DNA of 64,000 nt. It comes from Sarea resinae (Eukaryota). Made by a program: the position numbers and the translations under genes. The stretch's first letter is position 1, and each line of letters starts with the position of its first letter. Of the stretch, positions 1 to 22,440 are shown in pieces. The stretch spans positions 1 through 64,000 of the forward strand of contig JAPEUD010000002.1 in NCBI GenBank assembly GCA_026026165.1. Direction: 5' to 3'. Below the pieces are notes generated by a model. The model saw only the letters and a list, made by a program, of their open reading frames with translations. It was not told where the DNA came from and made no database searches.

Positions 1-296
1 CCAGCCAAATAGCTAAGATGCAACGCGGCCTGCAGTGCAGGCGAGCAGCGCCAGCGCAGCATAGAGGGTCAGAGGTAAGGCTAGGAGCACTAGAGGCAAT
101 GTTTTATCGCGTCTAACTAGTGGCAACCCTACTGCTGCAAGGCTACTTAGTTTAGGCCAGCCTGGCCGGCCAAATAGCTGACAGGCAGAGCGAGCGCGCG
201 GCGCACAGAGAGTTTTTTTCCTTCTAGACAATCTAGCAATCTTTTCTTCTAGACTGCCTAGAAGTTTGATCGTCGAACGGCGACATCGAGCGACGT

Positions 297-3200
297 CTAG
301 GCTCGCTCGAGCTCTCGCTAAAGGTGCAGGATCACTTTGATCATCACTACTATAGCGTTGCTGACCCACTCTCCCTACACCGGCCGGATGTGCCGTTGCC
401 TGAGCCACTTGCTGTATCCTTCGAGGTCGCCTCGCTGGCCGAGAAATCTGGCCCTGCTGATCAGCTCCTACCCTCTCGCGCTGGCTGCCGCGTCGGCTGC
501 AGCGGTGCGCACGATCGGCACCAGTCGATTCGGCCACTGACAGCTGGCCTGAGTGTCAACTCTGGTGCGGCAATACCGCTGACTGATGCCGCATCGAAAG
601 CAGCTGTGGGTCTTCTCCTCTGAGTCCTCTCAGAACCGGATTTTCTGTCAGAAGCTATTGACAGCCTGCTTGCTGAGCGCACCCCGCTGCAGGCATCGGT
701 GCCAGCTATGCTCCTACCGCTCTGCCTGCCTAGCCCCTTCCTTGAGCCCCTTAGCCACCTAGCAGACAGCGCACTGCCCTTCGAGCCAGTCGAGTGCCTG
801 CTCGACGACAGCCTGCTGCCGCTCCGCTTTGGCCTCGCAGGTCTGCCACTTGGTCAGGCCCTTGCCGCATCGATCGCACCGCGCCGCTGTGCCTTAGTCG
901 ACCTCGCCACACCGCACCCCCTTTCTGTCAAGGTAGCCGCTCATAATCTGCCGCCAGCAGCCCTAAGTGGTGATAAATTCCCACATCGCCTGCTGGTCGA
1001 CAGTACGCTCCACGACAGCCGCCGCTGTGAGCTGGCCGGCCTCTACAAGCACAACAGCATCCACGTCCTTGCCAGCGCGCCCGGCCCGGCCTGACTCCTG
1101 CGCGAAGTCGATCATGCTATACAGCACCCTGACGTGCAGCGTCATCAAGATCCCGCTGTAGTCGACCCTAGTGCTAAGCGCGCCAGTGGCGACAATCTAG
1201 CCCCCTTCAGACATCCACCGCCTAAGCTGGCGCTCCTTCTCCTCTAATGTCGAGTGATAGTGGCCGCACTGTAGAGTCTCAGCCAAGGCCTCGCACGCCG
1301 CCTGGGTTTGGCAGTAGATCACCCCTTTCCCTTGCCGCCGCAGTCGCTGCTGCAGCTGCTGTCGACAGAGGTGCGCCGCGCTCTCAAGCAGCTAGCTATC
1401 TTCGCACCGCACTACTAGATAGCGGGTGCGCGGCCAGATCGTGCGAGCGCGAATGCAGCGCGCCACTAGCATCAGCATGCTGTCAGCTAGCTCCCGCTCT
1501 AGAGCGGGCGGCAATGTCGCGGTCAGTAGTATTATCAGGCACATCATTGTCTGCAGATGCTTGAGATCGTTGAGCCGCGGCCGGTAATGGTTAGCTGTGA
1601 ACGTCAGGTGACACTCGTCCACGACGATCCGCTGCAGCAGACCGTGCCGCTGCAGCGCTGTGGCGTACGTCAAGAAACCCGACCCACTGGCAAGATCAGC
1701 GCTGACCACTACCACTGCAGCAAAGCTGCTATCGCTGTGCCTCTACTCGAGACCGTTAATGCCGACCCGCTGCAATTGGCCGACTAGATCGTTCACTAGG
1801 GCGCGGAACAGCACTACTACCACTGTCACTAGCGGCCCTTGCAGCCCTTTCTCCTGCCGCTGTTGCTTAAGCCAAGCTAGCAGCATAAACAGCAGGCTCT
1901 TCCTGCCTCTAGTAGGCAGCACTACTACAGTCGGCGTCTTATGTCGCAAGATCGCTTGCAATGCTATGCGCTGCTCTGCTGACTTGAACTCCACTCGACT
2001 TAACCCTAGCAATTGCTGCATGCTAGTAACAACCTCCTCTAAGTCGACGTTAATCTCTTGCCTCGAACTATTATCATCCTCTAGCAGCCGAAACCGCTTG
2101 CGGCAGCCACAGCCTATCACTAGAACTCTTGTTTCTTCTCTCTCCTCTTGCTCCTCCTCTAGCAGCTGCTCCTCCTCTGCTTCCTGCTTGCGCTTCGGCT
2201 TTCCCTTAAGCTCAGGCTAGGACTCGCTCTGCTGCGCTGCACTAGCTAGGCTGCTGCCACTATCAAGCTGTAGGAATGCGTGCCACGCCTGACTCACTCG
2301 GCCGAACGCGTCTAGAGAGCGCGCGCTGAGATTCCAGACAATATCCCTAGAAACGCCATATCGAATTTGCCTGATAGCAGTGGTGTGCCTGGTCTGCAGC
2401 TTGAGTTCGTCCTCCTGCTTAAGCTGCGGCTCCTCTATATCCTCGGCCTCGTCCCCACGATGCAGCGCTCGCCCCTTGCTGGCGGCGAATTCCTTGCCCA
2501 CGAATTTCCGGCCGATTGTGATCGCTACATGTCGATAGTCCTGCGTGGTCAGCCGACATTTCAACCGCGTGGACGTCTCGCGGCTAAGGACCCAGGTCAG
2601 CCGCTCTGTCGGCCACGGCTGCCCTTCAGCTGTGCCCCAGATAAATTCATTGTCAAGCCGCCCCCTAAGCTGACCGCGGTCTGCAGGTGGCTGTAGAACG
2701 GCTGCACGTAGGCTAGGTAGACGACTATGAGCTGGCCGACTCGCTACAGCAGGAAGCGCGGCACTACCTTCAGGGTATCGTACTAGGCCTAGCTCTTATA
2801 GTAGCGGGTCACTAGCACAACTGATCTATCCACTACATAGACATTGCGATCCTGCAGCAGGCTGTTGCGATGGCGCACCGACAACTCCTTAGTGCCGCGG
2901 CCAGGCTGGCCCCTAGTCACATAGCAGCTGAAGAGTAGCAGCTTAAGAAAGGCCTGCACGCGCCGGCAGTAGTCCCTGACCAGGCCTGGTTCCTAGCTGG
3001 TGCTGTCGCGCTGTCAGAGCGGTTTTTTGTCTTCCCTCCTTTCTTTCTTCTAGACTGTCCAGAAGTATTGAGCCGTGCAGGCGACGCGCGCCACTATCAA
3101 GGAGAGCCCCTGATCTAGCCGGTTCGCCAGATTGCTAAGGAAGGACTAATTCCGCTGCGTGAACGCTATGTTATCCTTGATGCCGGCTAGGTCGACAGTG

Positions 3201-4975
3201 AAGCAGTCGCCCAGTTCGCGGCACCACATCAGCTCAGGCTAGAGGATGGCCTTGGCGGCCTTGATCGCCTGGTGCGCTATCTGCCAGAAGTAGGCGATCA
3301 CGATCAGCTTGCTGCAGAAGCGCAGCGACTGAGCATCCTAGGCCTAGTTTGTCGTCGCTGTGCTCGGCTGCCGCCAGCCGATGTACTTAGCGTATGCAAG
3401 CAGGCTGATTATCGTGCTTATCAGGGTCAGCGAGCCGTCGGCTAGGAATATCTTGCGCTGCCCTAGGAAGCGCTTCTGCTCAGCCTGGCCCTGCCGCTCC
3501 TGCGCGGCCGCTGGCAGCAGCACCTCGACCCTAATCACCTGCATGCAGTAGACCACCCCGGCCAGCTAGTAGGAGTAGCTTGTCGCCGTGTGCAGCCGCT
3601 TAGTAAGGGGGTCGATGCTGAGCACAGCGAGGAAGTGGACCAGCGCGCTGTCAAAGGGGTCTACTAGTAGTGGGTCAAAGATAAGCGCCTGCAAGAAGGC
3701 CAGCACTTGGTCGACCTGCAGGGCCTTGTCGCTATCAAGCTCGAGCGACTCCTAGACAGCCTGCAAGCGCTTGTTCTGCTCCGCTGTCAGATGCAGCAAT
3801 TCGTCGGCATCCTTCAGCCGCGCGTCAGGTGCGTGGGCGGCAAAGGTGCGGTGGGCGAAGACGCGCAGGCAATAGCAGATCAGACGCGCCTAATAGTTAG
3901 CATAGCGCACCTGAGCCTCCGCGGTCTGCAGCCGACCTAATGGCTTCAGGTGCACCTCGGTGCGCTTCTCGCTGCGCAGCCAGCGGCAGAGCTCGAGCGG
4001 TAAGGTAGCTAGCCTAGCCACGCAGCGCTCGATCATCAGTCAGGTGACCTTGGCGGCCTGGCTAAGGATCCGGTCTAAATCCTGCCGCTGCCGCTGCCGC
4101 CGCGGCCGCCTAAGTCGCTGGTTAGAGAGCTCGCTAGCGTAGAGAAGGTGAGCCATATTCTGGCGGCGCAGGTGGGCCAGCCAGCTGGTGCGACTGAACC
4201 AGCTAGTGCGATCAGTCTTCTGCACCTTGCTCTTAGTCAGGGCCTGACTCTGCTTGTGCGCGGCCTGCTGAGCATCGAACTCGCGCTGGATCTGACTAGC
4301 TAGGTTGTTAGAGGCTGCTTCGCCTAGCCGATCATCATTGTAGCTCCTCTCTGCGTGCTCCTTTTCCGCTGGCCGCACCAGAAAATATCGCTGCAGCCCG
4401 CTAGTGAAGAAGGTCTGCACTAGAACCGGCTGCCAATTTAGCGAGTCCTCTTCTTCTTCTTCCTCCTCTCAATCAGCGGACTAGGCGTGCTGCTTATTGC
4501 TGTGCTTCTGCATGATCTAGCGATTCGCCGTGCTAAAACTACAGTCTCAACAGGTAAAGCCGTCGGTGGGTGCCCCTAGAGCAGGAAATGCAGGGCAATT
4601 CGGCGGTGGCAAAGGCACAGCATGCGGATCAAGTAGGCTGCAGCCTTAATACTGCGCTCTAAGCAGACGTCGCTCCTTAGCCAGCATTGCATGACTGTCC
4701 TTTAAGTGGCGGTCTATATTTCGAAGGGCGTAGCCATGTTGACAGCAGATTAGGACCTGATAGTTTAGCTTATAGTGGAATAATAACGATCGCGATCCTA
4801 ATCTTAATCTTGATCTGGATCCTAATCTCTCTTGCTGCTCCTCTTGCTCCTCTTGCTCCTCTTGCTCCTCTTGCTGCTCTTGTTGCTCTTGTTCTTGCGC
4901 CGCCTGCTGCGGCTGCCGCTGCCAGTCATCAAGGGCGGCGGCGGCGCCGCTGCAGGCGAAGTGCGCAGTTAGCAT
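297..4975 (-). pseudogene. DUF3505-like + tyrosine-recombinase-like + RecQ (SF2) helicase + Cys-rich C-terminus, telomere-linked-helicase-like
   Basis: Motifs seen: YQVLICCQHGYAL..IDRHLKDSH and VQTFFTSGLQRYF (DUF3505-like); LPT(G)G(G)KSLLFML (motif I), RIVVDECHL (DExH), LLTATLPP, ATGAL(G)T(G)VD and FAQESGRAGRAG (motif VI); then Cys-rich segments. Many TAG/TAA stops revert to CAG/TGG/CAA. There are 1-bp frameshifts near 2660 (copy A2 has the extra base) and near 920. Confidence 0.85.
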
Positions 4976-5102
4976 GCCTTGGCTCACTGTAATAACCACC
5001 TCGATCCTCCTCCTTCAACCCTAAGTGACGCTCAAACTCTCCTGGTAGATTTCGCCAGCCAGGCTAGCTAAATGGCTAGCAGGCTAGGCAGGCGCAGTGT
5101 AC

Positions 5103-5141
5103 ATATATATAGAGAGCTTTTTCTTCTAGACTGTCCAGAAG
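5103..5141 (-). promoter_or_regulatory. Putative promoter: palindrome CTTCT(A/G)GACnGTC(C/T)AGAAG followed by a TATATATA box
   Basis: Palindrome at 5123-5141 and a TATA-like run at 5103-5111, about 130 bp upstream of the ATG at 4975. The same arrangement recurs at 8090-8130. Confidence 0.45.
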
Positions 5142-5562
5142 TTTTTTAAAATCTTTAAACAGCGGCTAGTAGATCAGACGCAAGCAAGCCTTCTCCTTTC
5201 CTTAGAGCGCTGCGCAGGCGCTAGGGGCGAAGTGCGCTGTTAGTCTGCCTTAGCTAGCTGCAATCACCTCTCGATATACCTCGAACCCTAAGTAACCCTA
5301 AGGGACAGGGCAACCCTAAGGGTGGGAAATCGACGCTAGCAGGCTAGCGATCGAACGAACAGAGGGCAGGCGCGCAGGCAAGGATTAAGGCAGCTATTAA
5401 GGTAGTCAGGTCGGTGGGCAGAGGGCGCTTTTTAACAGGCGCGAAAACACCGTCGCAAAAACACTGTCGATTCTCGCTTAGGGCTCGCTTCGATGCCTTA
5501 AAGAGGCGAAGATCGGCGAAAATCGACGAGAAGACAGTGTCTTTAGCCGCTGCAATGCGGTT

Positions 5563-8548
5563 AGGTTAGTTACTCTATTAGCTATAGCTGCTCTTTAGCT
5601 ATACCTTAGATAAATTTATTGTTAAGCCTACTCTCTAAGCTAACTATAGTCTGTAGGTAGCTATAGAAGAGCTATATATAGGCTAGGTAGATAACTATAA
5701 GCTAGCTAACTTACTAGAGTAAGAAGTGTAGCACTACCTTTAGAGTGTTATACTAGGCTTAGCTCTTATAGTAGTAAGTTACTAGTATAACTAATCTATC
5801 TACTATATAGACATTGTAATCCTATAGCAGGCTGTTATAATAGCGTACTAATAACTCTTTTATACTGTAGCTAGGCTAGCCTCTTATTATATAGCAGCTA
5901 AAGAGAAGCAGCTTAAGAAAAGCCTATATATACTAGTAGTAGTCCTTAACTAGGCCTAGTTTTTAGCTAGTGCTATTGTGTTATTAGAGCAGTTTCTTAT
6001 CTTCTTTTCTCTTTTCTTTCTTCTAGACTATCTAGAAGTATAAGGTAGTGTAAGCGACTTGCGCTACTATAGAGAAGAGCCTCTAATTAAGCTAGTTAGC
6101 TAGGTTACTAAAGAAGGACTAATTCTACTATATAAAGGCTATATTATCCTTAATACTAGCTAGGTTAATAGTAAAGCAGTTGCTTAGTTAGTAGCACTAT
6201 ATTAGCTTAGGCTAGAGAATAGCCTTAGTAGCCTTAATTATCTAGTGCGCTATCTACTAGAAGTAAGCGATTATAATTAGCTTATTATAGAAGTGTAATA
6301 ACTAAGTATTATTAGCCTAGCTTGTTATAGCTATACTTAGCTACTATATACTAATATACTTAGTGTATATAAGTAGGCTAATTATTATGCTTATTAGGCT
6401 TAGCAAGCTATTAGTAAAGAATCTCTTATACTAGGCTAAGAAGCACTTCTACTTAGCTAGGCCTTACTACTACTATACTGCTGCTAGTAGAAGCGCCTTA
6501 GCTCTAATCACTTATATATAGTAGACTACTCTAGCTAGCTAGTAAGAGTAGTGTGTTACTATATATAGCTAATTAGTAAGAGAGTTAATACTAAGTATAG
6601 TAAGAAAGTAGATTAGCGCGCTATTAAAAGAGTCTACTAGTAGTAGTAGGTAAAAGATTAGCGCTTATAAGAAGGTAAAGACTTAGTTAACCTATAAAGA
6701 CTTATTGCTATCTAGCTTAAGCAACTTCTAGATAGCCTGCAAGCGCTTATTCTACTTTGCTATTAGATGCAGTAATTTATTAGCATCTTTTAGCTATATA
6801 TCTACTGTATTATTATTGTTAGCTATAGTAAAGGTGTAGTAAGTAAAGATATATAAGTAGTAGCAGATTAGACACGCCTAATAGTTAGTATAGTGTACTT
6901 AGGCCTTAGCGCTCTATAGCTAACCTAATAGCTTTAGATACACTTTAGTCTACTTCTTACTACACAACTAGTAGCAGAGCTTATATAGTAAGGTAGCTAG
7001 CCTAGCTACACAGCGCTTAATTATTAGTTAGGTAACCTTAGCTACTTAGCTTAAGATACAGTTAAAATCTTACTCTTACCTCTACCTCTACTCTTATTAC
7101 TAGCGCTGCTACTACTTAAGTTACTAGGTTAAGAGCTTACTAGTATAGAGAAGATAGGCTATATTCTAACAGTATAGGTAGGTTAGCTAGCTAGTGCAAC
7201 TAAACTAGCCTGTCTAATTAGTCTTCTACACTTTACTCTTAATTAGAGCCTAACTCTACTTATACACAGCTTACTAAGTATTAAACTCACACTAGATCTA
7301 ACTTGCTAGGTTATTAGAGGCTACTTTACCTAGTTAATTATTATTATAGCTCTTCTCTATATACCTCTTTTCTGCTAGCTAGACTAGAAAGTATTGCTAT
7401 AGCCTACTAGTAAAGAAAGTCTATACTAGAACTAGCTGCTAATTTAGCAAGTCTTTTTCTTCTTCTTTCTCTTCTTTCTCTTAATTAGTAGACTAGGTAT
7501 GTTGCTTATTACTATGCTTCTATATAATCTAGCGATTTACTATGCTAAAACTATAGTCTTAATAGGTAAAGCTGTTAGTAGGTGCCTCTAGAGCAGGAAA
7601 TACAGGGTAATTTAGTAGTAGTAAAGGTATAGCATATAGATTAAGTAGGCTGTAGCCTTAATACTACACTCTAAGCAAATATTGCTTTTTAGCTAGCATT
7701 ATATAACTGTCCTTTAAGTAGCAGTCTATATTTTAAAGAGTGTAGCTATATTAACAGCAGATTAGAACCTAATAGTTTAGCTTATAGTAGAATAATAACA
7801 ATTATAATCCTAATCTTAATCTTAATCTTAACTCTAATCTCTTTTACTACTTCTCTTACTTCTCTTACTACTCCTATTGCTTTTATTCTTACACTACTTG
7901 CTGCTACTACTACTACTAGTTATTAAGAGTAGTAGTAGCGCTATAAGTAAAGTGTGTAGTTAGTATACCTTAGCTTATTATAATAAACCTCTTAATTCTC
8001 TTTCTTTAACTCTAAGTAATACTTAAACTCTCTTAGTAGATTTTACTAGCTAGGCTAGCTAAATAGCTAGTAGGCTAGGTAGGTGCAATATATATATATA
8101 GAGAGCTTTTTCTTCTAGACTGTCTAGAAGTTTAATCTTTAAAAGGCTACTAGATTAGATATAAGCAAGCCTTCTTCTTTCTTTTAAGCGTTATATAAAA
8201 GGCGCTAGAGGTAAAGTGCGTTGTTAGTCTGCCTTAGCTAGCTGCAATCACCTCTTAATACCTCTAACTCTAAGTAACTCTAAGAGATAGAGCAACTCTA
8301 AGGGTAGGAAATTAACGCTAGCAGGCTAGCAATTAAACAAATAAAGAGTAAGCGTGTAGGTAAAGATTAAGGCAGCTATTAAAGTAGTTAGGTTAGTAGG
8401 TAAAGAGCGCTTTTTAATAAGTGTAAAAACACTGTTATAAAAACACTGTTAATTCTTGCTTAGAGCTTGCTTTAATACTTTAAAGAGGTAAAGATTAGCA
8501 AGAATCAACTAAGAAAATAGTGTCTTTAGCTGCTGCAATATAGTTAGG
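5563..8548 (-). mobile_element. Copy A2 of the same element, very heavily RIP-mutated, left-truncated by copy A1
   Basis: Colinear with 2595-5565. Differences are overwhelmingly C>T/G>A, with extreme TpA enrichment and almost no CpG or CpA. Confidence 0.85.
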
Positions 8549-9163
8549 CTTACTTTAGAACTATATTACCTAGTCGCTCTTCTCTTATATAATTATAGCA
8601 CTAGTTAGGTGCTATATCCTAATGTATTTGCTGTACACTAGCAAGCTAATTATTATACTTACTAGGCTATATAATCTGTTAGCTAGATATTGCTTGTGTT
8701 AAATAAGAAACAGCTTATATATAGCAGCCTTTTACTATTTATATTTATAGGCTAGTAGTAATACCTTAGCCCTAATAACCTAAGTATAATACACTATACT
8801 AGCTAGTAGATATAAGAAGTCTACTATAGGATAAAGCTAAATTATCTCTATATTAATTGCTAGTATAGAAAGAAAGTGTATAATTACACTGTTAAATTTA
8901 TAGGTAGGAAGTAGAGTGTAGATAAGCAATTAAAAGAAGTTAAACACTATCTTTACCTAGTGCTCTTTCTTCTTTAACTCTAATGCATCCTATATATACC
9001 TTAACTTCTCTTCTTACACTAATATTAGATATAGTAGTTTAGTTATATCCTAGAGCTCCTTATTAATCTCTGCTAATATAAGAGTCTTAGAGGCCTTAAG
9101 TACCTTAAGTGCCTCTAATACTAGTGTTACTAATACCTGTATCCTTGCTAGCGTCCTTACTAG
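8549..9163 (-). pseudogene. Downstream fragment of a diverged paralogous DUF3505/helicase-family ORF (element B), heavily RIP-mutated
   Basis: The translation FNSVIIHFLSILAIN...LLASIVYYT.VIRAKVLL...QYLANRLYSLVSIIISLLVYSKYI parallels FDSALVHFLAVLSID...LAGVVYCMQVIRVEVLL...IFLADGSLTLISTIISLLAYAKYI in copy A1. Confidence 0.7.
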
Positions 9164-9553
9164 TGTAAGGGATCAAACTAGATCGCACTAGATAAGTGCT
9201 AGACAGTCCTAAAGATGCAGGAACCGCCGAATCGTAATGGCGCTGCTATGCTCAATAGTTGTCGAGTGTGTCACTGTCTTAGGTCTCGCTGCTAATATGT
9301 CTCAGAGAACTCGAATAGGCAGCAGAACAAGCGTATCGATTAATATAAGCTATCAGCCTGTAGCCTAGTAACTGAGTAACAAGAAGAAGAGAAGAAAACT
9401 GACGCGCTAACTGCTTGCTTAACTGAATGCCAGAAAACTGATAGCTGAATGCGTGCATAAAGAACTAATGATGCCCCCTTTCTGAACCCCTAAGGAACAC
9501 AACCCCACCACCAATACCTGATGACTAAGCTGTTGCTGGTTTACCCTATCACA
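9164..9553 (-). repeat. 3' LTR (390 bp)
   Basis: tgtaagggatcaaac...ccctatcaca, near-identical to 20693-21082. Confidence 0.95.
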
Positions 9554-9564
9554 TCTGTCCCCCC
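9554..9564 (-). other. Polypurine tract
   Basis: Minus strand AGGGGGACAGA abuts the 3' LTR. Confidence 0.7.
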
Positions 9565-9646
9565 TACAAGAGGAAGTTGGCCTATAACTTCTAAAAAGAA
9601 AAAGAAGATGCTTGACTAAAAGAGAGTGTAGACAGGCATGCTATTA

Positions 9647-12600
9647 TCACAGGTTCCCCCTGCGTTTCCTAGTCGAGCGGCGAGGAGATAGATCTGTTGC
9701 TTGCCCGCGTGATTGTAGTAGTTCACCTATTGTAAGATTGCTAGAATCCCCTCTAAAGGGATTCAGCTGCGGCGAGGTTCGATTGCGAGCAGATTGTCGT
9801 GGCTAGGCTGCTGAATAGTGCGATCTATCGTCAGAACTTGACTCTTAGTAGTGGCTCCCCCCTTCAGGAGTAGCCATTTCTGTCGGCGCCAGCGGATCTT
9901 CTATGCTGGGTGCGGGTGGTTCCCTTGTGCTTAGAGCAGAGGACTTAGGGTGAACGATTGCTGACAGAGCTGCAGAGGTACGTTGTTTCTTTAGTTGGCG
10001 AGGCAGGAACAGGCCTTTGGCTTTGCGCTTGTCAGGCTAGGGGGTGCTGGTCAGGCCAGAAGATATCGGGCTGATTGTGCCGAGCCTAGGCTCTAGGGTG
10101 GTTTGCCTAACTTCGGCCTCTAGTGATGACTTAATATCTAGTTGAGTGGGAAATTTTTGTCTGGCTAGGCTAGAAGATATCTCAAAGAGATCGTCATCGT
10201 TGTCGTCCTTAGAGAGCTGTGGATCGCTGTCATCGTCTTCTACTAACACATCATGCTCCTTCAAATACCAATAGGACTTTTCTCTGTATAATCGCTGCTT
10301 AGCTCTCTTAAACACTGCAAATGCCGCCTTGTATTTCGTGATTGCACGACGTCTCTACTTGGCTATAAAGAGCTTAGTGGCATCTGCATCTAGTCTGAAG
10401 AGGATCACTTGTTGTTCTATAACCTTTGGATCGTTGTAGCGGCGTCGCCTAACAAGTGCATCCGAAATGGCACTGAGCCTTGTAAGAGAGACCGCTGCGC
10501 TGAATTTGCCTAGAACTTAGCTGTGTATGTTTGGGTGCCCTGACAGGCTATTTAGCAGAGGAACAAGGTCACGATGTGACACTAAGAGCTGATCCCAGGT
10601 GCCTGAGCCTGACATTTCTAGCGTCCGATAGTCCTTTTTGATTGCCACCTTCTAAAGGTAGACAACATTGCGCTTAGAGGTCGGTTTCTTTGTCGCACTG
10701 TGGATAATCCAAGGATCACTGAATCTGAGCCCAAGTTTAGGCACAGGACAAGGTGTCTCAGTGATTCCAAAATTGTCTTCGTCCTCTGCCGTCAGCCAAT
10801 TTCTGTCTATCTGAGTGACACGACTATTGTGTTTGTAGAGCCTTGAATTGCGCTCTTTCACCCCTGCGGCCCAGTCACCAAAGATCTTATGCTATCTGAG
10901 ATGCATACAGATGCAGTTGTTGTTGTCCTTGTGACTGAATGCAACTGCGCTTTGCACTATATTGATGCTAGTACTGTCCTCTGCTATTTTGCAGACATTT
11001 TAGTCTAAATAGTAAAACCCTGTTTTATCCCCTAGTGATAACGACTTAGTATAGTAAGGGTAGGATATCAGGCGTTTCTCTTAGTCAGGCCAGAAGTAAA
11101 CAGTTAACAAGTAGTGAAGCGGATCTTGATTTAGTAGCTGTTAGATAATAGAGTAGAACATGATGCGCACCTAGCCTAGATTTTCGTTGCTGTTTGCTTG
11201 TCGTTAGTGGTATTTGTAGACCGAAAATTCCTTGGCAATAGAACCTTCTATGTCTGTGTCCTGCACGATCCAGCTATATGCGTCTTTAACGATCGTGGAT
11301 CTGTCCTAGTCCTATTCTGTCTGTTTCCTAGCACTAAGGAGTTTGTGAACGTATGCAAAGTCCGCCTTAATAGCTTGATCTAGCTCTTCCGCCTTCAATC
11401 GATACAATCCCCTGGCATCCGCCGGCCGCTCTAGTCGCGCTTTCTTAATGAACCATTGATAAGTTTCTTTCTAGAATCTGAAATCTGACAGATCTGCTAG
11501 TCAGGCTAGGAGTTATCAGTAGCGGTCTGCTAACTCTTCATCTGCTAGATTATTCTTGAGACCCAGTCGTGAAGCCATGGCTCTGGTATGGTTCTAGCAT
11601 AGTGTTCTGACTAGAGAGTCCCCTCGCGTGAGTCTCTCCTAAGTCTGAAGAATTTGCAATGCTGCCTTATTAGTAGCCAACTTTTTGCTTGTTATTGAGT
11701 CAATAAAATGTTCAGGCATTGGGTTAGAACAGGTGCAGCCTTTCACGACCAGTCTGTCGGCTGGCTTAACGTCTGTGTTATCCTCTAGTTTCTTATAGCT
11801 AGGCTAGGAGATAGGTAGCGCAGGCGGCAAATCTCTGGCTTGTCTGAATTCTGCTTTATCTATAGCAGTCTTCTTAGCAACTAGTCCTTCAATCAGCTCT
11901 TCACTGTCCCTTGTCCATGAACTATAGTCAGATTAGTCATCTGCAGGATCATTTTGTGCCGGAGCCCTTTTTGCAGTGTTCTCTCTCTTAGTACAGTACT
12001 TTAGGATGTTGCGCGGTCTAGTCTATACTGGGTCCGCCAGACGCAGAATTCTATTGACGTCAATTATGCCCCCAACCTTGACGAGATCTTCTGTTGTAAA
12101 CTGAAATAGCTTTAGTGTTGTTCCCTTTTGAAGTTGCTTCGCTGCCTTAGCTAGTCGCTCCTAATCCCCTGAGGTTTGCTCGACGACTTTCTTAGAAAGG
12201 CCTTGTTTGCCTGTCCCTAGAAGTCTCTTCATAGCCTCTCTGTTCGCTAGTTCTATCGCTTTAGCAAATCTGTACCAGGCTGCAATCGCTTTCATTTGAT
12301 CCACATGATTTCGCGACATCTTAGCGTGCAATACACAGACAGCCTGATTGTATCCCTATTCGTTTTCTATTTTCTTGCGTCCTTTAGCAATGCGCTTATT
12401 CTTGTCTCGATATTCTTTGGCCAGCGCCTGCATCTGCAGGGATGCGGCGGACAGATAGTCACAAACATATGCAGCGAGGACAGGGTCTCTAGCCAATTCG
12501 GTCTCGTTCTACTTGTAAAGCTATAAATGTCAGTCATAGTATTTAGACATTTCGTCTGTAAAGGATTTATAAAAGGTAACCTTTGCAGCAGCGTCAGTAA

Positions 12601-13033
12601 TTCCTCTGATATGCTGGTGTACCGCGGCAATGTTGTGGAATCCCTGACCCTAGATCATTAGGAACGCCGACTGTTGCACGACCCTAGTAGTGTCTGTCAC
12701 CTTATTCATTGTATCTTCTGGCCTAACTAGCTGTTCTTCTGGTTTAGAAGTTTCTTAGGCGGATGCTGATGACAACTAGGCAGTGATTTGTTCTTGTAGG
12801 TTATTAGGTGATTGCTCTGCGCGTGATTCTCCTGCGGGTAACTCCTCAGCCGGTTCGGTTCGGCTTTGTATCTTAGGTGCCTCTCTAGATTCCTTGCCTT
12901 CTATTTCTTCATTGATAATAGAGAGATCAAACTGTGTAGTAGGGGTGACAAAGAGGTCCTAGCTATTGCTTTCAGACGAGATTAATAGTGGTGCTAGGGT
13001 TCTCTCCTCTGCAGAAGATTGCTGGCCGGCTAT
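9647..13033 (-). pseudogene. Extra retrotransposon ORF (~1,128 codons) with a CxC...CxxH motif and a 2OG-Fe(II) dioxygenase-like domain
   Basis: One continuous frame from ATA(=ATG) at 13033 to TGA-TAA-TAG at 9649-9641; the internal stops are all explicable by single C>T/G>A transitions. Motifs: GCTCSNP...TLC(W)NH; NLG(W)VRIMFYSII(Q)QLLNQDP; RLISYPYYTK; GDKTGFx(H)LD; PWIIHSAT..KRNVV; GTWDQLLVSHRDLVP..SGHPN. Confidence 0.75.
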
Positions 13034-14179
13034 TCTTGCTGGTTTAATCTTCTAGACAGTCTAGAAGATAAAGGGGAATAAGATGTTGCTAGAGTTGATA
13101 GATAACGTTCTGATTGTATGCGTGAATTTTTCTAGTTAGGGTTCCTAGGCGATTTTTCTCTTAGAGAATCTAGGAGATCGTTATCTTATCTGATCGGTCA
13201 AGGGAAATGGCTTAGACAGAGTCTCAGTTATCGTCTAATAAGGTGGCAGACAGCAAGTGCCGATCACAAGCGAGCCAATGAGGCAGAAGGCGTAAGCGAA
13301 CTACTTAGGAAGAGGATCTGTAGTAGGTGAATGATATGAGAAAAACAGACGAGACAGCGGCGGCAGAAATTGCATGAGAAGTAGGAAAATATTTAGAGAA
13401 GATAGAGGCAAGCAGGCGGAAGATGTTTTCTTATAGTCCTCGCTTAGGGTGCACGTGACTAGATTCCTGCCAATAATCGTCGGATATCAGCGTTGAAAAA
13501 GTGCTATCTTGCTTTTCTTTGTAGTGAATTTTGGCGTGTTATTGAGTTGAAGTAGTAGCGGCAGCGTTAGTGATGCGCTTAAGCGAGGTTCTTTGTTGCC
13601 TGTATTATTTCCTTGTTTACCCTCACTTTTAGGTGTGTTTCGCACTAAAAAGTAAGGTGAAAGTGAGATAAGTTTGAGATAAGGTTAAGCGAGTAACAAG
13701 AACAGTCTCTGCAATGCTAGTCAAGGCGAATAGTAGCGGTAAGGCGGATATATAGTGCTTGTGCGAGTTAGGAATGCTTGTTGTGCGATTTTGCTAACTT
13801 GTAGCGTGTTGTTGAATTCAGATAGGGGCTGCATGCTCTGCAGTGTTACCCTTTAGGTCTGTCTAGGAGATTAGGCTAGCAGGGTCTGTTTCGCCTCAAT
13901 ATGAGCTGAAGAAGTGAAGTAATATAATGTGTAATAAATTAGAAATGTTATCGCGGATTGTTAGGTATGCTGTGCTGTGCGACATAAGCTGCGCCTCCTG
14001 CGCCTCTAGCAAGGTAGACCGTGGTTGAAAAGATCTGGCTAGACAAGGTTGTGCATATGCACACCCCTCCCTAGTTTCTTTTGAAACTTCTAGCCAGGCC
14101 AGAAAGTTTTGTGCTATATAATTGGCCGAGGTAGGATAACAACGGCGAACGATCTTCTGCGAGGCACTAAGGCCTGCAA

Positions 14180-17100
14180 GGCCTTATATTCTTCTTGAGT
14201 TACTTGATTATTATTATCCTTAAGGTCCTTAGACTAAGTATCATCAGTATTATCTGCGGACTCGTCTTCAATCAGATAATCAGGCATAGGGGTAGGCGAT
14301 CGCGTGTTCCTCGCAGAATCAGGTAGAGGAGGTCGGCACGTAAATTTCTTTAGACGATTTCTAGGTGCGGTGCCGTTTAACTCGGCGCTGTCAAGTTCAG
14401 CAAGCTGGTAAGTTCCTCGGACAGGGTCAGCCTATATAACACAATAGGGACCTATCTACCTATAGCAGAGTTTGCTTCAGAGCAAATAGTCTGTAGCGAG
14501 CTTAGTGTCATAGAGTAATACTATATCATCGACGTTAAATTCATCTAGGCAGAGATTATAAACTTCATCAAATGCTTCTTTGCCTTGTTCACGCATGCAG
14601 CGTAGATATAGCTGGGTTTCCTGTAGATCTTTGTCGCGGCGTTGCATTTGCTGAGCCTATAATGCTAGTAATTCCGCAGTAGTTCGGACTGAATTCTAGT
14701 CCAATACGTGCTAGGTAGGAAGGTCTAATTCAACAGGCAAGACTGCGTTGTATCTATATAGCACTTGATAAGGTGTCTAGCTAGTAGAAATTCGAACCGT
14801 GGTGCGGTTAGCCTATAGGACTGTGTGCAAGTTCTGGACCTAATTTCCTATGCCTCTGTCTGTTATCTTAGCTAGTGCATCAACAATAGGGGTATGACCC
14901 CTTTCTACTAGGCTATTTGCTTGCAGGTGGTATGCTGAGACCACAACGTGATTGATTCTGTACTTCTCTGCAAGAACATGTACAGACTGCTTGTTCTCTA
15001 GTCCTCTGTTAGTAACTAGCTTCTGAAAGCATCTGTGGCGGCAGATAACATCCTTGTAAAGGAATTTAGCAACAGTAGCAGAGGTAGCGTCTCCTATAGC
15101 GCGTGCTTCTACCTAGCTAGAAAAGTTATCCTAGGCAACGATAATGTTCTTCCTATTCTAGCAAGCTGGCATATGTATCATGTCAAGGCTAACCTTCTCC
15201 TAACAGGCAAAAGACTAAGTCAGGTGTAAGGCCTCCTCTTGCTGTTTAGGGGCTCTCTCCTGACACTCCTAGCAGCTCCTAACGTATGTTACCACTTCTA
15301 GATATAGATCGCTCTACTAGTATTTATCCGCGATGCGCTGATAGGTGCCCTCTTAGCCTCTGTGTCCTCCTTGATCGTAGGCTTCCTCTAGGATGCAGGC
15401 TTTGTCAGCGTCTTAGTTAATAACTCTTTGAAGTGGCATATTCTTAGAGGCACGCTTAAACAAGTGTTAGTCGCGAACTAAGAATTTCAGGGCGTGATTC
15501 TTAAACTTGCAGAACTCTTTTGCGCTCATTTCTGCTGGCCAGACTAGGGAAAGAAGCCATTGTGCAATCTTCTGCGATTTGTCTAAGTAACTGTCCTTAA
15601 GAGGTAATAGAGGTTCTGCCTCTGCGCTGTCGCTATTCACAGATACAGGAAAGACTCGAACAAGGTATAACTCTAAGTCTATCACATTGTCAATGTCTGC
15701 CTTGTTTTCTATATTAGCGATATCTTCTGCAGTAGCTGGCTGACAAGATAATCTATCGGCGGCACCATGCTTTTGACTAGGAACATGTCGAACAGTGAAG
15801 TCGAAAAGGCGGATCTATGCAAGCCATTGAGTAACGAGAGCACTAGGAAGGTCAGCTGCAGGCATGTTAAGTTGTGCAACCAGGGTATTAGCATCGAGTT
15901 CTACTACAAAGGTCTGACTGTATAGGTAGACTCGGACTTTCTTCAGTGCCTTTAGCAGGCCTCAGCATTCTCGCTTTCCTGCATTGTACTTTTTCTCCGC
16001 GTCGTTCTAGAGTCTACTCTTAAATCAAACAGGGTGCCGTTTTCCAGTCTCTAGATTGACCTGCATAAGGTTCGCTCCCTAGCCTTCTCTACTAGCATTA
16101 ACTCTAAGTATAATCTCTCCTCCTCCTAGTCTATAGATAATTGTCACTAGTGCTAGCGCAGTAGTAAGAGCGTATTTTAGCTTATCTATAGCTAACACCT
16201 GATCTAGTCCCTAGACAAATTCAATATCCTTCTTGAATAAGATAAAGATCGGCCTAGCAATGATAGCGAACCTGTCAATAAAGATCCTATAGTAGACGCA
16301 TATGCCGATAAAAGCCCTAGCTTCTGTAACATTCTAACAATCAGGCTATTCAACAATCTTCAGCACTTTAGTGCTGTCAGGGTATCGGCTGTCTGAGTCG
16401 CAGACATAGCTAACAATCTTAATGCCTCCTATACAGAATTGAGATTTCTCGCTAGAAACTGTGCAGCTAGACCGCTCTATGTCTGCTAGAACCTTGTCGA
16501 GTGATTAGATATGCTCAGCTATGTAGCGCCTGATTCTAGGTAAAATTTCTTTGCCTTTATAGTCAGATCAAGGCCCTTTAACACCGATGTCGTCTAGAAA
16601 AGGTCGAGCAAGATTAGGAATGTAGTCGCTAAGAATCTTTGTGACAATGCAGACAAATTGCGCAACTGAGTTCGTAGCTCCTTGAGGTAAAGTCGTCTGG
16701 CGAAGCAGGCCTAGAGGTGTTATAAAGGCAGTCATATCCCGGCATTCTTCCACTAGTTCGATCTGATCATATCCTAAGAAGAAATCAATAAGTGAGGCGA
16801 CTTGCATGCCAGCAAATTCCTCAGAAAATTCTTCTACTAAAGGCAGGAGGTTCGCGTCTCGAATCGTGACCTTGTTTATTGCTATTGCCGCGTTAACTAT
16901 GCGATACTTTCCAGACTTCTTCTTAACTAGGAACCACAGGTTTCAGTACAGTCTGTGGCAGTGTTCTAGTAACCTATTCTTTAATCGTTCTTGTAGCATT
17001 TCGATAACCACTCTGTTTAGTGCTTGTAGAACCGAAAAACTATTGGCTTGCTAAGCGGTATGCGGAATAGTTCGTATCTCTTGCGCTAGCGCCACCTCCT

Positions 17101-17713
17101 TTCAGACCTTGCTAATTTCTGAGAAGTCCTACGCGAGGGCCTTCTTACAATTATAAAGCATTGTAGTAAGCATCTCTTTCTCTCGATCTAACATGCTGTC
17201 TCCTACAACTATTGTCTCTAATCTTTTAGGCGTAATGCGAGATCCCTTTCGCAACTTCGAAAACTTTGGAATCAGCAACGCGTCAAAGTCTTCTTCTAGA
17301 CGGTCTAGGTCTTTTTCGTGTAACGTTCTGTGGTTTGACGCGTCTTTCTCTTCTAACTCTCTTTTCTAGTCTTTCGCTCCTCTAGGCTTGCTACTGTCTG
17401 ACACTGAAGTGTTAACTAGTCTGACCTTGTCTCTCTTTTTCTTGTACATTGTATAGACGTGGGCTGAGTCGACGTTTCCTCTCAGATTCAACTCTAGATT
17501 AAGCATCCTCTTAGAAAACCAGTAAGTTTCCCCTTGACCCACGTGTAACGCTTTGAACTCCTTAACTAAATCATTATTCTCCTAGTCTGTCCTAGAGAAA
17601 TCCCTGGCCTTGTCATCTAGTTTCTGCCTGTCTTCTTCTTCTAAGCCTTGCTGTGTCAGTCTTACAGTTATAGCGAACACCTGCTTAGGATAGCGTCCGC
17701 TATCTAGTTTAAA
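14180..17713 (-). pseudogene. pol: reverse transcriptase, RNase H and integrase (3' end approximate)
   Basis: RT motifs DFFLGYDQI, LPQGATNS and FLDD (16568-16807). RNase H KKYNAGKREC.GLLKALKK..ELDANTL. Integrase HHCC (GGHRG.EGTY..RSC.ECQ) and core (SAYHLQANSLVERGH). No chromodomain seen. Confidence 0.9.
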
Positions 17714-20025
17714 CAGTTCTGGCTAGGGAACACGTCAGCATGCCTTCTATCAGACGAACTTCCTACCTGTGCTGCACTAAACATCTTCGAATGACGTTAG
17801 TCCTCTAAGAACACAGTGCACATTGTTGTTCTGTTGTCCTACACCTTAGTGCGCATGCAAGCAGCAATCTAATACAGTTGACTAAGGATAAGCGGTCGAT
17901 CCGGTTAAGTAGTGATGAAAATAGGTACCCTGCTAGTGATACCTCTAATATCGACTTCAACATCTTTAGCGCATCCTATAAATAGTGCTGGCTTCCCTTC
18001 AATGCCAATCATTGTAGTAGCTAGTTAAGGAGTCTAACTTAGCCTGAGATTCTTTGCTGTTAATAGGCTCATCAGACATATCTTAGCACCACTGTCTAAC
18101 AATCCTCTCATTCTCCTTTTTCCTTCAATGCTCACTTCTGCCATTATACACCTAGCGGCATATAACGTGGAATTCGGTATTTCCTTATCGGTATAATCGT
18201 TGCTTTCTATCTTTCTAACCATCACTAGGCGATCTATATCATGCTGTCTAGCTGCGAGATAGCCTTCTGATCTTCTGCCTAAAGGGTACGACTTATCTCT
18301 AAGGTTCTTAAAGAAAAGCTTCTGAACTTCAGGCGCATTCGAAAGAAGATCCTTAACTGTGACGTAGTTAAGCTGCTGATCTAGTATTATGTCTACAATA
18401 GAAGCAGGGTTAGCGTCTTCTCTAAGGTAATCAGACAATCAGCGTCGACAAGTTTTTTGTTAATGTGTTTCTTCTACCTTATCTATTAGTTCTAGCTCAG
18501 CGAACTCTACCCTCTTCTTAGAACTGCTGGCTAGACTAAGACATTGCAGAGGCTGTTCTTTGTGACAGACTATATCTCTCTTCTTAAGAACACGACTGCT
18601 CTAGTACGTCCTAGGGCGGATGTTCTTAGCTGCAGGCAACTTTTCTTCCTCCTAAATTCGCCTCTTATAGACTCTAGCATCTGGGTCTTGTACAGGTTTC
18701 TGTGTAGCAGGGTTAGATCCTCGCCTAAGGATCCTCCTAGGTTGTCTTGCTAAATAGACATTCGATTAGTCATAGTCATTGGCTTCCACGTCTGTGTTAT
18801 CTAGCTTAAGATCCGCTGCACGAATAGAACTAACCCTCGCTAAGCTAACCCCTGAACTAAGGCTTAGTTGCTCCTTCCTTTCGTTATACATCCTTTTCTA
18901 TTCTCTGTCGGCAAACAGAGCTCAATATTCGCTAGGAGGAATATGCAACTCTGCTCTGCCTTGTCCTTTAGGACCCTAACACATTCGACGACGTTCGTTG
19001 AAATGAATCTTCCTACTTGCAAGGAGCTGCTGCATTAGCAGGCAATTGGCGAATCTATGGCGCTAGTCACTGCATCTGAAACATCTAGTCAATTAAGCAC
19101 AGTTTGCATCGCGAGCCAGATCTGCTCTATTATTCTGCTGGCTAGTCTAGTAGTTTAGTGCGCTTGCGACTTTTAGGGCAGAAGATAGTATCTAAGCAAG
19201 GAGCTTAGCAGTGTTCGCGGCACTTGCTGTAACTGCCTTGATCAGAATCATTAAGCTGGCTAACCTGTCTGCTAATTCGTCTATAACCTTATTAACCTTC
19301 TTGCTTGCTGTTCCTTCCACATGATCTTGCACAACTAGAGGTTAGAGTAGCTCTGCTACAGCAGCCTTTAGAGCTAGGTGCTGTCCCTTAATCAAGGTCT
19401 TCACTATCTTTGTTAGCTCTGTCTCATTCAGCTTCTGCAGTGCCTGCATAGATTGACATTGCTTGATAGCGATATTAAAGATCTTCTTAAAGTCGACATT
19501 AGTAGGGTTGTAATCGTCTAGATCGATATAGCCTCGCGTGATAACTTTGACTTAGATCTCTTAGGGAAGGCCTTAGAGGAACTATAACATGCGAGTATAG
19601 GCATCCAGCTTGTTTTTCTGGCATAGGGTTTGAGAGATGCTCTAGAACTGACAACAATATTGACAGATCTCTTCTGCATTCGAACAGGGTTTCTCTTTAA
19701 GGGCTTTAAGGTAAGTTTAGGAGTTGATTTGCTGCTCTACGTCCTGATTAGAGTAGTCTTTTAGCAGCGATTTCTTAAACTCATCCTAGTCCACAAGATA
19801 CTCTAGTATAGTCTTAATACTGCGAGACACAATACTCTCACAATAACGTGGAAGCCGCTTAAACATCTCAGTTTAGTCAAGCTAGTAATCCTTGCACAGT
19901 CCTTCATATCTCTCGAGGAACTCTGTAGCGTTCACCCTGTTGAAATATAGTACGCTATAGGTCCTAGAGGACGGCATAGGAGTGAGATAACGCATAGTAG
20001 GCAGGAATGCAGTGCTGGCAGCCAT
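17704..20025 (-). pseudogene. gag + aspartic protease
   Basis: Gag N-terminus MPS..(P)YF(DG)VNATEFLERYEGLCKDY; zinc knuckle CFRCSD..HRFANC (~19030-19085); protease LLDSGAKICLMS (~18080) and PLIL(G)Q(P). The frame ends at T TTA AAC TAG. Confidence 0.85.
17707..17713 (-). other. -1 ribosomal frameshift slippery heptamer T TTA AAC
   Basis: X XXY YYZ heptamer in the gag-PR frame, followed immediately by TAG. The RT and IN ORFs lie in the -1 frame. Confidence 0.7.
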
Positions 20026-20669
20026 TGTAGGTGGTGTTAGTAATTCTAGTGAACTGTCTCCTGAAAAGTGCAGAGGAGAACGCGTTTGCATAGCAGTAAC
20101 AATCGCAGCTGCAACAGAGTTTGCTGTTTCTTAAATGATTGCTTGAATGAATCGTGTCGACTTGTGAGGGCACTTGTCTTGTTTGCTGCTTTTAACTTTC
20201 TTGTGTTTAGACCTTGTCTCACTCTCGCTGATCCACTCATCTCTGGTAGCGCCTCAAACATCCCTTAGCGCACTCCTTAACGCACGATAAAGCTGTTCCT
20301 TCTGTCTGTTCTCCCTGCACACTGCGCGATAAACCGCCTTATCGCTAAATAAACTGTAAGCTGTTAAGGATCGCCTCTGACCTCCTCAGATAAATGGCTG
20401 TCGCCCAACTATTTTGACAATAAGATCTGGCTAGTCTAGTAGAATTTTTCGTCGTGTAATCTCTGAACTTCGCGTCTTTGTTTCTGAATTCTTTTAGGGT
20501 CTCTGCGATTCCTACTTCTTGTCTCCCTTGTATCGTGCTGACCTTTTAGAGTCCTAATCGTACAGGCTAGGTTTTGTACCAGCCTTGCAGATCTAGCAAC
20601 CCTCCTGTGTATCCTTCAAGCAGTGTTTATACTTATCTGCAGAGCACTTTCTAGTCGAATCTGTGTTGA

Positions 20670-20691
20670 TCGAGCCCTGCGTAGGTCACTA
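20670..20691 (-). other. Primer-binding site complementary to a tRNA 3' end (isotype not determined)
   Basis: Plus strand tcgagccctgcgtaggtcacta de-RIPs to TCGAGCCCTGCGTGGGTCACCA, a tRNA-like T-arm/acceptor/CCA sequence 1 nt from the 5' LTR. Confidence 0.65.
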
Positions 20692-20692
20692 A

Positions 20693-21082
20693 TATAAGGG
20701 ATCAAACTGGATCGCACTAGATAAGTGCTAGACAGTCCTGAAGATGCAGGAACCGCCGAATCGTAATGGCGCTGCTATGCTTAATAGTCGTCGAGTGTGT
20801 CACTGTCTCAGGTCTCGCTGCTAATATGTCTTAGAGAACTCAAATAGGCAGCAGAACAAGCGTATCGATTAATATAAGCTATTAGCCTGTAGCCTAGTAA
20901 CTGAGTAACAAGAAGAAGAGAAGAAAACTGACGCGCTAACTGCTTGCTTAACTGAATGCCAGAAAACTAATAGCTGAATGCGTGTATAAAGAACTAATAA
21001 TGCCCTCTTTCTAAACCCCTAAGGAACACAACCCTACCACCAATACCTGATGACTAAGCTGTTGCCGGTTTACCCTATCACA
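20693..21082 (-). repeat. 5' LTR (390 bp)
   Basis: tataagggatcaaac...ccctatcaca, followed by CTAG. Confidence 0.95.
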
Positions 21083-22440
21083 CTAGTATCTTTGCTAATA
21101 ATTCTAATATATCTAATACTTACTACTTAGCTTTATATACTTACAAATAGTAGCACACTAATTAGGCCTAATACTTAGTATACTTCTTCTAACTCTTAGT
21201 ATTCTATAATTATACTAATAGCTTAGGATACACCTCTTTATATTTCTTACTATATAGCTACTATTATATCTCTACTAGTAATATTACTAACCTAGTAACA
21301 CACTACTTAATTATTAACTCTACTACTTAACTAGCTTGCTATATTAATCCTATATCCTAATAGAGCAACTAAGTAGTATATACTAGATACTTTAGATTAC
21401 ACTGTTTAAGATATTTAGGCTAGCTAGTTTAGTTAAACTAGCTAGTCTAATTAGTCTTTATAATCTCTTCTTTAGTAATAATAAGCTTATAATTATATAC
21501 AGCCTCTTTTACCTTCTATATATTAAGAAGTAGATATGCTATAGTAGTATCTTTCTAACTAAGTAGAGGATTAATCTCTTTATTATTAACTTATATAGTA
21601 AAATAGCGCTGTAACTTGCTGCTGTTAAAGAACGTCTGCACTTTTACCTTGCGCTAGTGCTTCTAATCCTGCTTATAAACCTGCTAACTATGCACTTTAT
21701 TATAATGCTACTATATAACCTTTTAATTAATAGTAAGAAAGTTGTATTTGCCTTTATTATACTAATATATATCTAATAGTCTTACTAACGCATTAAACAG
21801 TTAATAGTTAGGTGTAGATAATAGAACCTTACTTAGTTTAGCTAAGATATAGTCTTAAAACTGCACTAGAATCTGCTGTCGCTTTTTAATAGATAAAGTA
21901 TAATAATATGCTAAATGCTAGTTAAGATCTCTAATTGTATATTTATGTTAATTATATAGAAGCACTTAAAAGTCATGTTTATAGTATAGCTAGTTAGTTA
22001 TAGCAGCTCTACCTTCTGCTTCTACTTACACTTACACTTCTACCTACACTTCTACTATACCTTTCTACTGTAATTAAGATATAATATCTGTAATTCTACT
22101 ACTTTATTAATGTGTTAATTACAGCATTAATTAATCTACTATATAGTTAATTGCTTAGCTATCTTTACTACCTTAGCTCTTTAAATAGCTCTTTACTCTT
22201 ACTTGTTCTACCTTTAACTCCTAGCTTTAGTACTTATCTAAAGTAGCTCTAAGTTACTCTAACAAACTCTAAGCACTTTATTTAGTAATATTGCAGCTAT
22301 AACACAAGATAATTAATTATGCTTTATAGAATTGTAATAGAGAAGATTAGAAGATATAATGCGCCTAAAGAAAGAGAGTATTTTAATAGTATTAACTGAC
22401 TAGAGTTCTACTACTAGAGTTCTACTCTCGCTAAATTATT
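21083..22440 (-). mobile_element. Upstream part of element B (DUF3505-like N-terminus and leader), heavily RIP-mutated; right end approximate
   Basis: RKVKVQTFFNSSKLQRYF near 21600-21650 and LSIKKRQQILVQF near 21860-21895. Extreme TpA bias ends near 22440. It continues into 9163-8549 across the LTR insertion. Confidence 0.65.

Follow-up and report, generated by a model that had tools for sequence, protein, structure and literature searches.

The window analysed here is a 64,000-nucleotide stretch of Sarea resinae DNA (assembly GCA_026026165.1, contig JAPEUD010000002.1, positions 1 to 64,000 of the forward strand). Its first 22.5 kb are a nest of repeats and the adjoining sequence is ordinary, at ~52% GC. 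The nest holds three decayed, head-to-tail copies of a fungal telomere-linked helicase (TLH) unit, all on the minus strand, which we call A1, A2 and B. Unit A1 (1..5565) is the youngest and least mutated (GC 0.576) and extends past the left edge of the window. Unit A2 (5566..8548) has been heavily altered by repeat-induced point mutation (RIP; GC 0.327) and is without its 3′ part. Unit B is a diverged paralogue in two pieces: a distal remnant (8549..9158) cut at the A1-equivalent of ~3308, and a remainder (21083..22460) that runs from the A1-equivalent of ~3861 into the upstream region. A degenerate Ty3/Gypsy-like long terminal repeat (LTR) retrotransposon (9159..21082, minus strand) is inserted between them. 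The end of B near 22460 is placed solely by the end of RIP-type composition, and B's own end motif was not located in its upstream region, which is too diverged.

The A1 open reading frame (ORF; 321..4975, minus strand) is a pseudogene of ~1550 codons, interrupted by 31 in-frame stops and by a single frameshift that lies between 2701 and 2654. Its translation contains an OrsD-type zinc-finger region (PF12013, Pfam E 1e-12; 4486..4783, minus strand), with the motif CCQHGYALRNIDRHL at 4703-4753. Next comes a middle 'TLH domain' (2265..3238, minus strand) with a predicted tyrosine-recombinase-like fold, in which the candidate catalytic motifs GQPGRGTKE, YYKS, DYRH and RYGV are kept. The last region is a RecQ-like superfamily 2 (SF2) helicase core (960..2050, minus strand), recognised by TRGRKS, DECH and QESGRAGR and by Helicase_C at E 8e-07. 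Pfam found no reverse transcriptase (RT) family in the A1 translations; the RT nearby belongs to the LTR element inside B. Full-length relatives of A1 (1442-1891 aa, up to 39% identity) are RecQ helicases according to their sources, and carry PF00270 and PF00271, some of them PF16124 too. The name TLH is borne by none among the 120 matches listed. The relatives share a conserved domain of ~320 aa that occupies the position described for the ~250-aa TLH domain, and it is by position that we equate the two.

The right-hand borders of A1 and A2 are versions of one sequence. A1 terminates with ...gctgcaatgcggTTAGG at 5565 and A2 with ...gctgcaatatagTTAGG at 8548. Read on the sense strand, these borders are the A1 end motif (5547..5565, minus strand), CCTAACCGCATTGCAGCGG, and its RIP-mutated form in A2 (8530..8548, minus strand), CCTAACTATATTGCAGCAG. 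The first seven bases of the A1 motif form a single telomere-like unit that runs opposite to the expected telomere; on the forward strand it appears as GGTTAGG at 5559-5565, with a RIP-mutated counterpart bordering A2 at 8542-8548. Self-BLAST pairs 2618-5584 with 5587-8572 at 71.8% identity over 3020 columns, and the two units are collinear from A1 position 2597 up to the common end ...GGTTAGG, where homology stops. Beyond 8548, the sequence aligns to A1 3308-3922 with a score of 260, compared with 61.4 +/- 6.5 for 30 shuffles, and a BLAST match joins B to A2 6325-6694 (E 9.75e-17). The two junctions therefore connect a single fixed end to two different points in the interior of the same family. 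The original prediction, made from the letters of this stretch, had claimed just this, and the alignments confirm it.

At the A1/A2 junction (5561..5570) a transition-tolerant local alignment sets the first base of A2, 5566, opposite A1 2597, the A1-equivalent to which the A1 end is joined. In this alignment TTAGG|TTAGTT stands opposite CCAGG|TCAGCC of A1. Of the five shared base pairs that had been claimed here, AGG is identical, and the other two count only if RIP changes are allowed (TTAGG/CCAGG), which takes two C-to-T changes, one in a CpA and one in a CpC context. The intact target in A2 reads CCTGG, so that the strictly shared bases are three. A2 is cut inside the recombinase-like domain, at ERLT|W, and is thus without the helicase, and B is truncated upstream of the same domain. 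At the A2/B junction we found no convincing overlap: the A-family equivalent, used in place of B's own intact sequence, is identical at 7/14 positions. One alignment did run across this junction, but with such identity it was discarded as evidence of microhomology.

A1 2597-5565 and A2 5566-8548 differ by 779 substitutions, and 701 of these read C>T or G>A going from A1 to A2, which is the RIP pattern. Most of the changes are at CpA and CpG, which marks A2 as a RIP-mutated copy. By context, 76% of CpA sites in A2 are mutated and CpG sites are hit nearly as hard (69%), with CpC at 18% and CpT at 13%. GC content is 0.27-0.30 in B, 0.33 in A2 and 0.58 in A1, which fits an age order of B > A2 > A1. 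The LTR element inside B has LTRs of ~395 bp (9159-9553 and 20688-21082) that are 95.7% identical, and minus-strand domains for RVT_1, RNase H and an integrase zinc-finger. It is apparently flanked by a 5-bp repeat, ACTAG/CTAGT, and is itself mildly RIP-mutated, with a GC of 0.44.

To set the window beside its relatives, we used 64 metagenome loci encoding proteins of this family (cited below by L numbers). The upstream end of the unit in these relatives is CCTAACC[A/G]ATATGAGG, and the ends of A1 and A2 are versions of it. This motif starts the unit in at least 11 loci (L018, L019, L020, L027, L028/L029, L031, L039, L046, L054, L058 and L061) and lies 258-418 nt upstream of the ORF match. It is preceded by unrelated flanks in L027, L028/L029, L039, L046, L054, L058 and L061, whilst in L018, L020 and L031 the contig starts with the motif exactly. 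Because the same motif starts the unit in related loci after unrelated flanks, the common breakpoint is more than chance; it is a true element end. In at least 13 independent cases, be they junctions or contig starts, the sequence begins at the identical base of the 16-nt motif, in loci whose proteins are 39-50% identical.

The alignment of these ends has 19 rows, of which one has a padded first base, and the L018/L019 rows and the two L024 rows are not independent. Information content is 1.3-2.0 bit across CCTAACC and does not exceed 0.5 bit in any of the 30 flank columns. A target-site logo had been proposed from the collected junctions; the 16 junctions with a left flank yield no target consensus. 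The prediction had further read TTAGG as a crossover core akin to the fungal telomere repeat, with the caveat that RIP might have created it. The likeness to the telomere is borne out, with CCTAACC in the same place in the relatives. TTAGG belongs to the element rather than to a target core, because it is conserved within the relatives' end motif. It is also original and not a product of RIP, because relatives that have undergone no RIP carry CCTAACC.

Further features lie close to the end. A second telomere-like unit, GCGTTAGGG, is found ~48-58 nt inside the unit end in L018, L028, L039, L046, L054, L058 and L061. It is inverted relative to the terminal CCTAACC, an arrangement that would allow the two to pair or to be bound by a dimeric telomere protein. 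In A1 the sequence GAGCCCTAAGCGAG lies ~75 nt inside the end, in the other orientation. Upstream of the A1 ORF there are also three TTAGGG units on the sense strand (5286..5319, minus strand), a feature seen in relatives as well. Tandem duplications of the end cassette, or of the motif alone, occur in L019 (1-622), L024 (45-103) and L030 (1590-1650).

The relatives also tie the family to chromosome ends. Eleven of the 64 loci end in 3-22 TTAGGG repeats on the sense strand, 1.0-3.2 kb downstream of the ORF. The family is therefore a true telomere-linked helicase that is transcribed toward the telomere, and a telomere is expected to the left of A1 in the window. Helicase matches are co-oriented in all cases (94/94, 0 inverted). 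In the five loci with both an end unit and a terminal array (L020, L031, L046, L058 and L061), the end unit is inverted relative to the telomere: the strand that finishes in (TTAGGG)n has CCTAACC at the border, or CCTAGCC in the case of L031. A healed telomere, as in yeast Y′ elements, is thereby ruled out as the origin of the junction TTAGG. Among nine multi-copy loci, six (L003, L004, L005, L045, L053 and L054) have a 3′-truncated copy on the proximal, centromere side that abuts the start of the next copy, and two (L010 and L030) hold complete tandems. At the other end of the unit, the end-motif-like AACCGCT... lies in direct orientation no more than 120 nt from the telomere in 8/11 telomere-ended loci; its background is 57 occurrences in 401,790 nt.

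The middle domain was modelled and aligned from residues 560-880 of relative P0003, between the zinc finger and the helicase. Over 33 sequences the ~320-aa domain has a mean column identity of 65%, and R101, K144, R220, H221, R263 and Y272 are invariant, with K135 nearly so. Their succession, R...K...R-H...R...Y, is canonical, and 9 residues separate R263 from Y272. The AlphaFold2 model has a pLDDT of 79.1 and a pTM of 0.82, and R263 falls in a stretch with pLDDT <50. Compared by VIA-align with 48,161 chains, the model matches Xer with a Z of 10.3 (150 residues aligned, root-mean-square deviation 3.0), and every chain in ranks 1-20 is a tyrosine recombinase or a type IB topoisomerase. The Foldseek matches listed up to rank 24 are all tyrosine recombinases, including Cre, XerA, XerH, XerD, Tn1549 Int, lambda Int and Flp. 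Language-model look-alikes scoring 0.82-0.85, taken as leads only, fall in Phage_integrase, NDC10_II, DUF3435 and ResT/TelK clusters. The structural comparisons thus support a tyrosine-recombinase fold for the predicted domain. A literature search found telomere-linked helicases and tyrosine recombinases nowhere joined; subscription journals lay outside its coverage.

Taken together, these data lead us to favour, with slightly better than even confidence, an arrangement built by stacking of units at a chromosome end, where the joins would have been made by the unit's own protein. We prefer this to nested insertion because orientation is uniform throughout, proximal-side junctions predominate and the family occupies a terminal position. 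Serial nesting was the history originally predicted: A1 would have integrated in A2, and A2 in B, each with both ends, by recombinase crossover at short matching cores, and the absent halves would be situated to the left of the window. The exact end with its 3-5 bp overlap at A1/A2 would suit such a history, as would the recombinase-like fold predicted for the protein and the end-like motifs in direct orientation at both unit ends. However, insertion at varied interior sites gives no reason why 94/94 helicase matches and both window junctions should be co-oriented. It also sits poorly with six loci with proximal-side junctions against one with a distal-side junction, with eleven loci that pass from the ORF straight into a terminal telomere, and with flanks that share no target consensus. 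Moreover, the interrupted copy is not resumed past the full copy in L005 (1.2 kb) or L045 (1.7 kb), flanks that are maybe too short. We therefore regard nesting as improbable. The associated idea of recombinase-mediated integration has gained a footing from the predicted fold and lost its proposed core, TTAGG.

The main rival to stacking by the unit's own protein is host recombination alone, in which break-induced replication, microhomology-mediated joining or capture of a linear TLH fragment repairs eroded ends. The fixed end would then be a binding site for a telomere protein, or an insulator, at which homology between chromosome ends stops, and the middle domain would merely bind DNA. Overlaps that are short and variable (3-5 bp at A1/A2, ~1 bp at A2/B, 2-4 bp in L030) agree with this. 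So does the resemblance, judged from sequence, of the end heptamer and the second inverted telomere-like unit ~50-60 nt inside to sites of duplex-telomere proteins, and the available passages of published accounts invoke only rearrangement and truncation. What host recombination explains poorly is that so many independent joins share their first base: copying primed by microhomology should set out from scattered positions in the donor, but at least 13 starts coincide. In addition, the heptamer, being inverted relative to the terminal array in five loci, is no remnant of a healed telomere of the kind seen at yeast Y′ junctions, and the invariance of R, K, R-H, R and Y in the domain also counts against this rival. 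We judge host recombination alone to be unlikely, though a serious contender. An assembly artefact, with repeats collapsed or chimerically joined at a shared k-mer, is highly improbable. The region is repetitive, but hundreds of RIP transitions set A1, A2 and B apart, and such copies are not collapsible; the same kind of junction is found in independent contigs of many samples, and the LTR insertion in B has matching flanks. Retroelement-style terminal addition is ruled out, as A1 has no RT and the polarity is wrong.

Several findings weigh against stacking by a unit-encoded recombinase. L056, one of the nine multi-copy loci, has a complete copy followed by a 5′-truncated paralogue, as nesting predicts. 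In L018 (1-5603) and L019, both from one related species, a complete unit lies between perfect inverted copies of a 316-bp end cassette; it begins with CCTAACCGATATGAGG and ends with CCTCATATCGGTTAGG, with 7.6 kb of non-TLH DNA beyond. A unit bounded on both sides beside unrelated DNA again speaks for nesting, and this one resembles a transposon with terminal inverted repeats; it was seen in two samples, and an assembly effect is possible. The duplication junction of L019 coincides with CCAACGG of the single-copy L018, a look-alike of the end motif CCTAACCG, and joining at such a look-alike site is likewise to the credit of nesting. Sampling may also have tilted the count of junctions, for contigs may break in the 3′ tandem repeats and leave 3′ junctions under-sampled. 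The window itself shows no telomere and contains neither (TTAGGG)2 nor (CCCTAA)2. As to the protein, the predicted fold is the one basis for regarding the domain as a candidate recombinase, and the same fold is found in non-catalytic DNA binders such as Ndc10, a point that host recombination can claim. By motif order, Leu apparently stands at the first catalytic His position and Arg at the second His/Trp position. No Foldseek match has an E-value better than 0.02. At E up to 10, Pfam gave no match to PF00589 or DUF3435 in the 33 members or in A1, a sequence-profile search of the PDB with the middle domain returned no recombinase, and hhalign put Cre at a probability of 0.4% and lambda Int at 0.05%.

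Under stacking at the chromosome end, the history of the window would run as follows. B, the oldest unit, adjoining unique DNA near 22460, would have lost its telomere-side part. A2 would then have been attached where B had been cut, through the fixed end of A2 that faces the centromere (sense strand CCTAACC...), and would in turn have lost its telomere-side part inside the ORF before A1 was joined to it likewise. Each join would have been made while the acceptor was the chromosome end. RIP would subsequently have mutated the copies according to age, and the LTR retrotransposon would have landed in B. The joins may be the work of the unit's own protein, in which a recombinase-like domain is predicted beside a helicase of 3′-to-5′ type. 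Such a protein would make its cut at the conserved end motif and then pass the unit on to a free DNA end or to a weakly matching site.

A more specific version, distinctly unlikely in our view, makes TLH units self-propagating end-capping elements run by a fused putative tyrosine recombinase and 3′-to-5′ helicase. The recombinase would nick the antisense strand just after ...GGTTAGG at the centromere-side end and remain bound to the resulting 3′ end, and the helicase would peel the strand off toward the telomere. The 5′-OH of the C-strand at an eroded chromosome end would then resolve the 3′-phosphotyrosyl bond, and fill-in synthesis would supply a whole new unit plus telomere. From such a scheme would follow an exact fixed end, arbitrary acceptors, a single orientation, distally truncated older units in stacks, and telomere linkage. 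It would also give a reason for the switching-on of TLH-type genes in telomere crisis.

Just past the A1 stop codon, a promoter-like module recurs in direct orientation: window 1-470 compared with 4800-5565 gives a direct score of 112.5 (shuffles 49.3 +/- 7.4), with 119-284 and 5016-5180 as the convincing core. This module, which resembles part of the A1 end region, could start a further unit leftward, or be part of the unit's 3′ region. No inverted repetition of that end region, of the kind seen in L018, was found past the 3′ end of the A1 ORF (score 63.5, within the range of the shuffles, 49.3 +/- 7.4, maximum 74). Window positions 247, 3048, 5124, 6021 and 8113 each hold a near-perfect palindrome, CTTCTAGAC-N-GTCTAGAAG, reminiscent of the half sites of heat-shock elements. 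Three of these are in A1 (3′ of the ORF, within the ORF region and just upstream of the TATATATA box that precedes the ORF start) and two in A2, and similar copies lie at 13050 and 17294 inside the LTR element. The palindrome may act in a promoter as an element that responds to stress.

Yeasts and many filamentous fungi have been known since the 1990s to carry telomere-linked helicase genes. To our knowledge, neither what these genes do nor how their units move between chromosome ends is understood, and no function has been assigned to the conserved 'TLH domain'. If the domain were an active recombinase on the end motif, the units would be mobile end-capping elements and not passive subtelomeric repeats. 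This would offer a concrete route for telomerase-independent repair of chromosome ends, and a recombinase-helicase fusion would join the known kinds of eukaryotic mobile DNA.

The Y′ element of Saccharomyces cerevisiae is likewise a subtelomeric helicase unit that is transcribed toward the telomere, can stand in tandem and is amplified when telomeres fail. Its Y′-Y′ junctions contain telomere repeats oriented as in the terminal tract, and it spreads by homologous recombination through these repeats, whereas the junction unit described here is inverted relative to the terminal tract. Moreover, we know of no recombinase domain in Y′-Help1. Cryptons and Starships, the latter with DUF3435 'captains', encode a tyrosine-recombinase fold and have exact ends that share a few bases with the target. 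The TLH units resemble them in having exact ends, few shared target bases and, as predicted, such a fold. They differ in lacking a sequence-level match to PF00589 or DUF3435, in the fusion of the recombinase-like domain to a RecQ-like helicase, and in being telomere-linked in one fixed orientation. Compared with Crypton-like transposons, they show one end within the window and no common core in the flanks, with two inverted ends in L018. Drosophila HeT-A/TART, Magnaporthe MoTeR and the endonuclease-less Penelope-like elements are retrotransposons that add themselves to chromosome termini. They too form head-to-tail arrays in which older elements are cut on the telomere side and the next is joined by its fixed end. 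However, A1 has no reverse transcriptase, its fixed, centromere-facing end is the 5′ end of the gene and not the 3′ end of an RNA, and its junction is without telomere repeats in the orientation of those elements. The proposed pairing of activities in the TLH protein would be the mirror image of that in the Helitron, which combines an HUH nuclease with a 5′-to-3′ helicase.

The closest counterparts are other fungal TLH regions. In Magnaporthe oryzae, as far as the available passages describe it, the 3′ end of the helicase gene in TLH region I faces the telomere, as in the present family, ends are truncated to varying degrees and once within the ORF, a discrete centromere-side boundary lies upstream of the gene, and telomere-like motifs occur there too (PMC1635262). 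By description, that boundary differs in lying within tandem-repeat blocks (HAR-C), and stacked truncated copies are not described in those passages (PMC1635262). According to the accessible parts of a preprint, the TLH-containing regions (TLHcr) of Fusarium oxysporum are found at chromosome ends, singly or in arrays, full-size or truncated, and have a single telomere repeat on both sides (10.1101/2024.02.27.582403). They are like the units of the window in encoding a RecQ helicase together with a C2H2 zinc finger, and their 'TLH domain' corresponds by position to the middle domain here (10.1101/2024.02.27.582403). The same parts name the 'TLH domain' without a function, contain the words 'recombinase' and 'mobile' 0 times each, and give no orientation of the flanking repeats, extended end motif or mechanism (10.1101/2024.02.27.582403). 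In the S. resinae window, by comparison, the repeat runs opposite to the expected telomere and forms part of a conserved 16-nt motif, and the copies are RIP-mutated pseudogenes. Taken alone, the window is more modest, another and heavily RIP-mutated example of the full and truncated TLH arrays drawn for F. oxysporum, and the worth of the case lies in the predicted recombinase fold and the conserved end motif.

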